A DNA stretch of 64,000 nucleotides. Source: an uncultured Gammaproteobacteria bacterium. Lineage in GTDB: Bacteria; Pseudomonadota; Gammaproteobacteria; CAKMZV01. The DNA is taken from assembly GCA_929200535.1 (NCBI GenBank), contig CAKMZV010000001.1, positions 45,470-109,469 on the forward strand, read 5' to 3'. Below, one piece after another: positions 52,627-52,796 of the stretch (position 1 is its first letter; every line of letters begins with the position of its first letter). A program made the position numbers and the translations under genes. Below the pieces are notes generated by a model that did no database searches, was not told where the DNA came from, and saw nothing but the letters and a program-made list of their open reading frames with translations.

Positions 52627-52796
52627 GGTTTCGGTTTGAGACCTTTGCATAAAAGTATGGCAAAAGGAAAAAGATAAAAAATTGTTCTGATTGAGGCGTG
52701 AAACGCAGCCAATACGTCCGTCTTCGCAAGTTTCACAATGAAAATCAGGGCAATTTTTTGCTTTTTTATTTGTCATATCTTTTGTGCAAAGGTCTC
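52627..52796 (-). mobile_element. MITE-like palindromic repeat, copy 6 (orientation A)
   Basis: tgagacctttgcataaaagtatggcaaaaggaaaaagataaaaaattgttctgattgaggcgtgaaacgcagccaatacgtccgtcttcgcaagtttcacaatgaaaatcagggcaattttttgcttttttatttgtcatatcttttgtgcaaaggtctc; overlaps last 30 nt of dihydropyrimidinase ORF. Confidence 0.85.

Follow-up and report, generated by a model that had tools for sequence, protein, structure and literature searches.

The C-terminal residues and the stop codon of a dihydropyrimidinase gene (hydA) of an uncultured gammaproteobacterium are supplied by a copy of a 159-bp palindromic MITE, as a preliminary description of this DNA had claimed, and the translation of the open reading frame and the boundaries of the element agree on this. 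The stretch of DNA analysed here (64,000 nt; hereafter, the window) contains seven full copies of the element and one partial copy (Table 1). Very probably, the MITE family spread by insertion into AT-rich DNA combined with purifying selection, and the remodelling of C-termini was a tolerated by-product of this spread and not a designed function.

MITE sequence at the 3' end of hydA

The identity of hydA was established from its Pfam Amidohydro_1/3 matches and its similarity to the P. aeruginosa dihydropyrimidinase 5ykd (8.7e-214). The protein can be aligned to solved dihydropyrimidinases (5ykd) only through residue 469, and the 460-aa D-hydantoinases end near residue 464. Within the reading frame, the 31 nt of MITE sequence begin at the third base of Pro470 and run on through nine codons (RPLHKRYDK) to the TAA stop. 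The title of the preliminary description gave eight MITE-supplied residues, but its body, which counted 27 nt plus TAA, was right in implying nine. It also placed the element at 52627-52796, where the right end is correct and the left end is not: the true start is 52638, and 52627-52637 are flank and target-site duplication (TSD).

In-silico removal of copy 6 together with one TSD restored a hydA product of 475 aa that ends ...PAYYKPKPLNN*, with its stop at 52614-52616. Five native residues (KPLNN) have been swapped for nine encoded by the MITE (RPLHKRYDK), and the orphaned KPLNN codons now also end a 40-aa open reading frame (52614-52736). The preT-like gene that is next in the operon has its ATG at 52595 and a GGAG ribosome-binding site at 52606-52609. 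The distance from the hydA stop to the preT ATG was 18 nt in the native arrangement and is 170 nt at present; the restored spacing is that of a typical tight operon junction. The same hydA-preT-preA order is found in MITE-free Ca. Pseudothioglobus, with a spacer of 47-74 nt.

In the orthologue search, no MITE-free hydA orthologue was found to end in RPLHKRYDK, the observation that the preliminary description had named as the one that would speak against its reading. The orthologue tails beyond RPP differ among themselves. Beyond the 100% cluster, hydA orthologues free of the MITE reach at most 76-77% identity, and none of the strain assemblies fetched showed an empty site; the native hydA tail therefore rests on the TSD-based reconstruction. 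The altered tails of hydA and of a second affected protein, which has a Glu_synthase domain (see below), lie beyond the conserved cores.

Structure and copies of the element

The 18-nt terminus of the MITE, GAGACCTTTGCAYAAAAG, has 15 matches in the 64-kb window, as compared with 0.23 expected by chance. The TIRs start GAGACCTTTGCA at both ends and have 43-nt arms with a complementarity of 74-77%. In each copy, the two ends agree almost perfectly over their first 18 nt. Pairwise identities among the 159-bp copies are 90-96%. Length variants of 149-229 bp exist, a transposase gene is absent, and the longest open frame has 53 codons and runs through the element. Two subfamilies with common termini were distinguished, type A (159 bp) and type B (149-150 bp, with a different interior), and there are A/B chimeras too. 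With its small size, TIRs, TSD of fixed length and variable sequence and many dispersed copies, the element is a classical MITE that duplicates 5 bp of its target.

Table 1 Features of the hydA locus and MITE copies in the window
Feature	Position	Strand	Details
MITE copy 1	14247..14405	- (canonical strand)	TSD AAGTT at 14242-14246 and 14406-14410
Glu_synthase (FMN) domain gene	14404..15723	-	Pfam Glu_synthase 9e-90; present end ...IPGKTT-TGA
MITE copy 2	17464..17622	+	TSD AGATT; 42 nt past dsbC-like stop, 83 nt ahead of GATase gene start
MITE copy 3	20876..21034	+	TSD absent; 44 nt upstream of typA/bipA
MITE copy 4	21403..21561	+	Flanks AATTT / CATTT, 4/5 match
MITE copy 5	40037..40264	+	228-bp type A/type B chimera; TSD ATTAT
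preT-like gene, next in operon	51243..52595	-	Pfam Fer4_20, Pyr_redox_2
Orphaned native hydA tail, KPLNN + TAA	52614..52631	-	Severed from gene by insertion; from in-silico excision
MITE copy 6	52638..52796	+ (canonical strand)	Type A, 159 bp; in hydA 3' end, upstream of preT
hydA, chimeric dihydropyrimidinase gene	52766..54205	-	479 aa; residues 471-479 and stop are MITE sequence
MITE R-end within hydA	52766..52796	-	31 nt: ccG AGA CCT TTG CAC AAA AGA TAT GAC AAA TAA
Partial type-B element	56642..56760	+	Left TIR and interior; right TIR missing
MITE copy 7	57608..57766	+	TSD absent; 48 nt upstream of rutR-like TetR gene

The termini of copy 3 carry a compensated change at both ends (GAGCCC...GGGCTC). 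Type-B or chimeric elements are located at 40037-40264 and 56642-56760 in the window, at 2830-3058 and 12747-12895 in contig L073 and at 13855-14004 in contig L071; the A/B chimeras are 228-229 bp long, and one type-B half-element is without a right TIR. The rutR-like TetR gene (56897-57559) sits between this half-element and copy 7. A degenerate remnant of the MITE terminus, TTTTTATATAAAGGGCTC, lies at about 60385-60400, upstream of a trpE-like gene (60405-61868). An apparent insertion polymorphism in the trpE region, suggested by an extra TIR in two strains, was rejected because this remnant is present in all strains. The window also contains three copies of a GC-rich palindrome, TCCCACGCAGGAGCGTGGGA, that looks like a REP or a terminator hairpin (22907-22937, 24387-24417 and 47299-47329), each of them downstream of a minus-strand gene.

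Target-site duplication and target choice

Tabulating the flanks of the copies revealed the 5-bp TSD, which the preliminary description had missed. At the hydA site it is GGTTT (52633-52637, repeated at 52797-52801), and the right-hand GGTTT, read on the minus strand, specifies K469 and positions 1 and 2 of the P470 codon in hydA as it now stands. Four window copies have the same pentamer on both sides (AAGTT, AGATT, ATTAT and GGTTT), a fifth has pentamers that match at four of five positions, and copies 3 and 7 have none. Further TSDs on other contigs of the same organism are TTATT, ATATT, ATACT and AGAGA. A total of 20 perfect TSDs were available, i.e., 4 from the window, 4 from other contigs of the organism and 12 from other genomes. 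Their GC content is 17%, as compared with 32% in intergenic DNA, and 19 of them begin with A or T. None of the motifs TGA/TCA or TAA is common to the 20 perfect TSDs. A target preference for TGA/TCA flanks, as had been suggested earlier, was rejected given that the targets are variable AT-rich pentamers; a TGA appears at the junction because a flanking T adjoins the GA that starts the TIR (GAGACC).

The left flank of the hydA copy (52623-52632, caaaggtttc) resembles the R-end of the element (52787-52796, caaaggtctc), with 9 of 10 positions matching in the same register, and this is why the native tail (KPL...) and the MITE tail (RPL...) start alike. The resemblance was seen at the hydA copy only and not at other copies. 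It could be due to chance (~1e-2, post hoc) or to insertion beside an end-like sequence.

Other gene ends altered by the element

At copy 1, the stop of the Glu_synthase-domain gene is a TGA whose T comes from the TSD and whose GA opens the TIR. The preliminary description had this stop formed by the terminal ggtctca of the element, which is correct for the GA and not for the final 'a', a base of the flanking TSD (AAGTT). The native end of the gene, ...IPGKTTY-TAA, is orphaned at 14237-14242. Excision of copy 1 restores ...GTTWIPGKTTY*, i.e., the protein has lost one residue (Y) through the insertion, and the C-termini of its homologues consist of 1-7 variable residues after ...IPG. Copy 4 ends at 21561, three nucleotides ahead of the sufS-like stop, as had been described, and its right flank CATTT (21562-21566) overlaps that stop (21565-21567). 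The RPLHKRYDK tail reported for the spurious minus-strand ORF over copy 4 (21531-21728) was likewise found in its translation.

Comparable junctions were detected outside the window. In the same organism, the TGA of a secretin gene (L073) is built exactly like the copy 1 stop, the TAA of a rhodanese gene (L075) abuts a MITE copy, and one copy lies 6 nt past hicA. In another genome (L048), the uvrB stop TAA is located inside the TSD. A Thiomicrorhabdus MAG (JAKISK010000001; L010) has a related MITE at 5367-5525 with the TSD ACTTG, and a GGEEF-motif protein (5495-6703, minus strand) ends there in ...GKNQV-RPLHKRMHG*, with the same terminus and frame as the hydA tail. This is an independent case of the same C-terminal remodelling in another genus. 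The location of copies at or next to gene 3' ends, to which the preliminary description had drawn attention, thus recurs both here and in relatives (secretin, rhodanese, uvrB and GGEEF cases).

Of the six end/frame combinations for reading into the element, five run into a stop within 5-13 codons, and for this reason any insertion in the tail of a gene supplies a C-terminus and a stop; the sixth combination is open throughout. Every type-A copy has a frame on its reverse strand that stays open from one end to the other (e.g., 52618-52854, minus strand). Public 'hypothetical proteins' of 48-94 aa (P0397-P0400) were annotated from this open reverse frame of the type-A MITE.

Positions of the copies relative to stop codons

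Of the 14 same-organism copies, seven are found at -31 to +15 nt from a stop, and five overlap or abut one. The significance of this depends on where insertions are permissible: p = 0.002-0.003 if these are only the spacers, or at most the last two codons, and p = 0.04-0.15 if the last 5-10 codons are included, also with the TSD-motif-weighted null. The enrichment near stops is suggestive only. The preliminary description had proposed preferential insertion at stops or tolerance there; the 3'-end positions stand, and a true preference of the MITE for stop codons is equivocal (p = 0.002-0.15). We read the stop-proximal pattern as the product of AT-rich target choice and purifying selection, with a weak extra preference possible.

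Under the explanation that we favour, a young 159-bp palindromic MITE family would have spread through an uncultured gammaproteobacterium related to Thioglobaceae/SUP05. The element would have been mobilised in trans, presumably by a DDE-type transposase recognising the GAGACCTTTGCAYAAAAG termini, and we infer that an IS provided it. Each insertion duplicates 5 bp of AT-rich target, copies that disrupted genes or promoters would be lost to selection, and the survivors would be those in spacers or in the last dispensable codons. In hydA, the element entered five codons ahead of the native stop, such that the ribosome now reads through the TSD into the R-end, adds RPLHKRYDK and meets a TAA 31 nt inside. 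In the Glu_synthase-domain gene, entry one codon ahead of the stop joined the flanking T to the GA of the TIR as a TGA. The new tails are presumably neutral. Several observations were counted against this explanation: neither an empty site nor, among the matches listed, an autonomous IS was found, copies 3 and 7 are without a TSD, the clustering at stops beats the strict random null (p = 0.002), and a conserved hairpin that is stronger on one strand suggests more than inert DNA.

Alternatively, the transposase could actively target stops or gene 3' ends, recognising TAA-containing AT-rich pentamers or terminator-like DNA, in which case the positions would reflect site choice and not selection. 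Such targeting would account for the 7 of 14 copies near stops, as compared with 0.11-0.12 under a uniform intergenic null (p < 0.003), but this excess fades once the last 5-10 codons are tolerated, the TSD-motif weighting notwithstanding (p = 0.04-0.15), and the sample is small (n = 14). The TSDs are far more AT-rich than intergenic DNA (17% vs 32% GC) and begin with A or T in 19 of 20, as targeting would have it, yet they have no TGA/TCA or TAA motif in common. Likewise, the uvrB TAA within its TSD (L048) and the flank of copy 4 overlapping the sufS stop are set against many copies that lie 40-400 nt from any stop or beside gene starts. On balance we consider active targeting unlikely.

Hairpin conservation and strand asymmetry

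Copy 6 folds as one hairpin, with -73.3 kcal/mol on the plus strand (z = -11.8) and -55.7 kcal/mol on the minus strand. To evaluate the conservation of this fold, 21 elements from five lineages were aligned (alignment A2: the window copies and members from L010, L012, L017, L018, L020, L027, L034, L045, L046, L051, L052, L070, L071 and L073). In these, 96.2% of the pair cells are paired, as compared with 82.8% in shuffles and 40-53% when the partners are slid, and compensatory changes occur at 28 of 49 pairs (17 +/- 2 in shuffles). The wobble cells include 116 G.T and only 8 A.C, and the positions that are ever G.T outnumber those that are ever A.C (27 vs 7; p = 0.0008). Every oriented copy folds better on the G.T strand, mostly by 15-30 kcal/mol, and both gene-relative orientations occur. 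At the centre of the element lies a 72-nt hairpin, with -15 to -30 kcal/mol when folded on the canonical strand and -7.5 to -26 kcal/mol on the reverse. T6N2T5-6 comes immediately after it on either strand, a layout that, judging from the sequence, resembles a bidirectional terminator. A terminator role, which the preliminary description had put forward, is plausible.

A simple promoter and terminator scan of 52400-53000 called no terminator and no promoter-like site that could restart preT. Searching Rfam returned sub-threshold plant/animal miRNA hairpin models only, the best with 25 bits against a gathering score of 211. In the same organism, 9 of the 10 copies between co-directional genes (window copies 2, 3, 4, 6 and 7, and copies in L070, L071 and L073) are entered by transcription from the R end, i.e., on the weaker-hairpin strand. 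The corresponding counts are 7 vs 7 in other genomes, and an orientation bias as a property of the family was rejected.

We find it doubtful that the copies are kept for a function, with the hairpin and T-tracts acting as a bidirectional terminator or as an mRNA-stabilising or RNase III-cut 3' hairpin, and with the copy between hydA and preT re-tuning the operon. The 72-nt hairpin running directly into T-tracts on both strands would suit a terminator, but the length of the hairpin and its interruptions are not those of a typical terminator, the simple scan called neither a terminator nor a promoter to restart preT, and efficient termination in the hydA-preT interval would be damaging, whereas preT and preA are both found intact and conserved. 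The end-to-end hairpin is kept with covariation across the five lineages (28 of 49 pairs compensated) and its wobble pairs fall nearly all on one strand (116 G.T vs 8 A.C), which also points to retention; the 9 of 10 same-organism copies that present the weaker-hairpin strand to transcription would do so as well, if there were not an even 7 vs 7 elsewhere. MITEs that resemble terminators (SPRITE), and the processing of MITE hairpins by RNase III, have been discussed in the literature (PMC10969869, PMC5896051). Somewhat less probable again is that the family, spread across Thiotrichales-like marine gammaproteobacteria, is more than a passive palindrome, and that the upkeep of the hairpin and the one-strand wobbles imply a strand-specific single-stranded phase under selection, either as RNA, in the form of an orientation-dependent terminator or stabiliser co-opted by hosts, or as ssDNA in a transposition step that still gives 5-bp TSDs.

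Distribution of the family and conservation among strains

A search with the MITE-encoded peptide retrieved four more contigs of the same organism with at least seven further copies. In the reference-genome scan, elements with the same termini, a length of 159 bp and 5-bp TSDs were detected in Thiotrichales-like MAGs (Thiotrichaceae, Thiomicrorhabdus, Piscirickettsiaceae and Cocleimonas), among the matches listed. Matches to a single 18-mer terminus were many in unrelated taxa, at chance level. The plasmid collection (blastn) gave only noise for the MITE (E >= 2), and scanning metagenome contigs with an interior 19-mer yielded three matches, all of them by chance and without the MITE. For the parental IS, 54 genome loci among the matches listed showed no TIR pairs 0.3-2.5 kb apart and no transposase-like ORF by solo termini. 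The host TypA is ~75% identical to that of Candidatus Thioglobus, and its nearest match is at 83%. No paper pairing MITEs with SUP05, Thioglobus, Thiomicrorhabdus or Thiotrichaceae/Thiotrichales was found among those that a literature search listed, and the family appears to be previously undescribed.

Related strains were represented by all contigs whose hydA, Glu_synthase-domain, sufS and typA proteins are the same or nearly the same as those of the window. Copies 1-4, 6 and 7 are at the same places in all related-strain assemblies, i.e., fixed in the strains sampled, and the junction between hydA and the MITE is identical in five independent assemblies. Among strains, hydA differs by 6-7 nt but by only 1-2 aa, and preT is identical, indicating that these genes are still constrained after the insertion. 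Several related-strain assemblies (contigs L060, L067, L068 and L069) break inside MITE copies, just past hydA or the Glu_synthase-domain gene, and the repeat thus limits assembly contiguity in this organism. Although contigs break inside copies in this way and an empty site for comparison was not found, the reading of the RPLHKRYDK tail as ancestral coding sequence, or of the junction as a repeat assembly artefact, is effectively refuted, given that the same sequence is the terminus of every copy, a perfect TSD flanks copy 6, five independent assemblies agree on the junction, the gene order is as in relatives and the tail is absent from all orthologues.

The window also encodes a Kelch-repeat (beta-propeller) protein (23126-24247, minus strand) whose gene has internal DNA repeats. 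A eukaryote-like Kelch protein, low-complexity metagenomes and the proliferation of the MITE hint at a host-associated lifestyle.

Comparison with known elements

The element shares features with several described families. Like the Correia elements of Neisseria (CREE/NEMIS) and the pneumococcal SPRITE, it is a gene-adjacent hairpin MITE, a kind discussed as terminators, RNase III substrates and promoters. Correia elements, however, duplicate TA and have 26-bp TIRs, in contrast to the variable-sequence 5-bp TSDs and the unrelated GAGACCTTTGCA termini of the MITE described here. A 5-bp TSD and long inverted repeats of ~40 nt are also found in TIMEs (Tn3-derived inverted-repeat miniature elements), but Tn3-family repeats begin GGGG and end internally TAAG, whereas the termini here begin GAGACCTTTGCA.

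In Coxiella burnetii, 11 functional genes share 1-50 bp of their 3' ends with copies of QMITE1 or QMITE2, from which they receive either just a stop or a stop preceded by as many as 16 new residues, the tails being often basic (Wachter et al. 2018, PMC5896051). All of the functional genes affected were hit at the 3' end, which the authors suggested to be due to C-terminal tolerance (PMC5896051). The MITE analysed here is similar in being gammaproteobacterial, in its stable hairpins and conservation among strains, and in overlapping gene 3' ends with a basic tail (RPLHKRYDK). It differs in its length of 159 bp, its 5-bp TSD and its GAGACC termini. For QMITE1, a length of 300-400 bp and direct repeats of 2-3 nt have been given, whereas QMITE2 measures 150-190 bp, carries a GTAG REP and has direct repeats of 7-11 nt (PMC5896051); as set apart by these descriptions, the families have no apparent sequence relationship.

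In-frame fusions of Rickettsia palindromic elements (RPE) have been reviewed together with the terminator-like SPRITE MITEs (PMC10969869). Both RPE and the present element are palindromic repeats of ~150 bp that occur inside protein genes and are translated (PMC10969869). Unlike RPE, which insert in frame and mid-gene and add an internal peptide, the MITE affects the extreme 3' end only and terminates the protein. The element plus its TSD is 164 nt, which is not a multiple of 3 and leaves the native hydA tail out of frame, and preservation of the frame as in RPE thus fails. The remodelling of 3' ends by MITEs is a known phenomenon, and what is new here is an apparently undescribed family.

Biological implications

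The last nine residues of hydA, the stop of the Glu_synthase-domain gene and several public 'hypothetical proteins' are transposon sequence and not evolved coding sequence. The locus provides a clean, reconstructable case in which extreme C-termini tolerate replacement, and in which the AT-rich ends of a mobile element serve as ready-made stop signals. In the pyrimidine-catabolism operon, a MITE copy now parts hydA from preT/preA, and their co-expression could change. The conserved hairpin favoured on one strand is the sole feature that might repay more work, as a candidate natural terminator or RNA-stability module in uncultured relatives of sulfur oxidisers.
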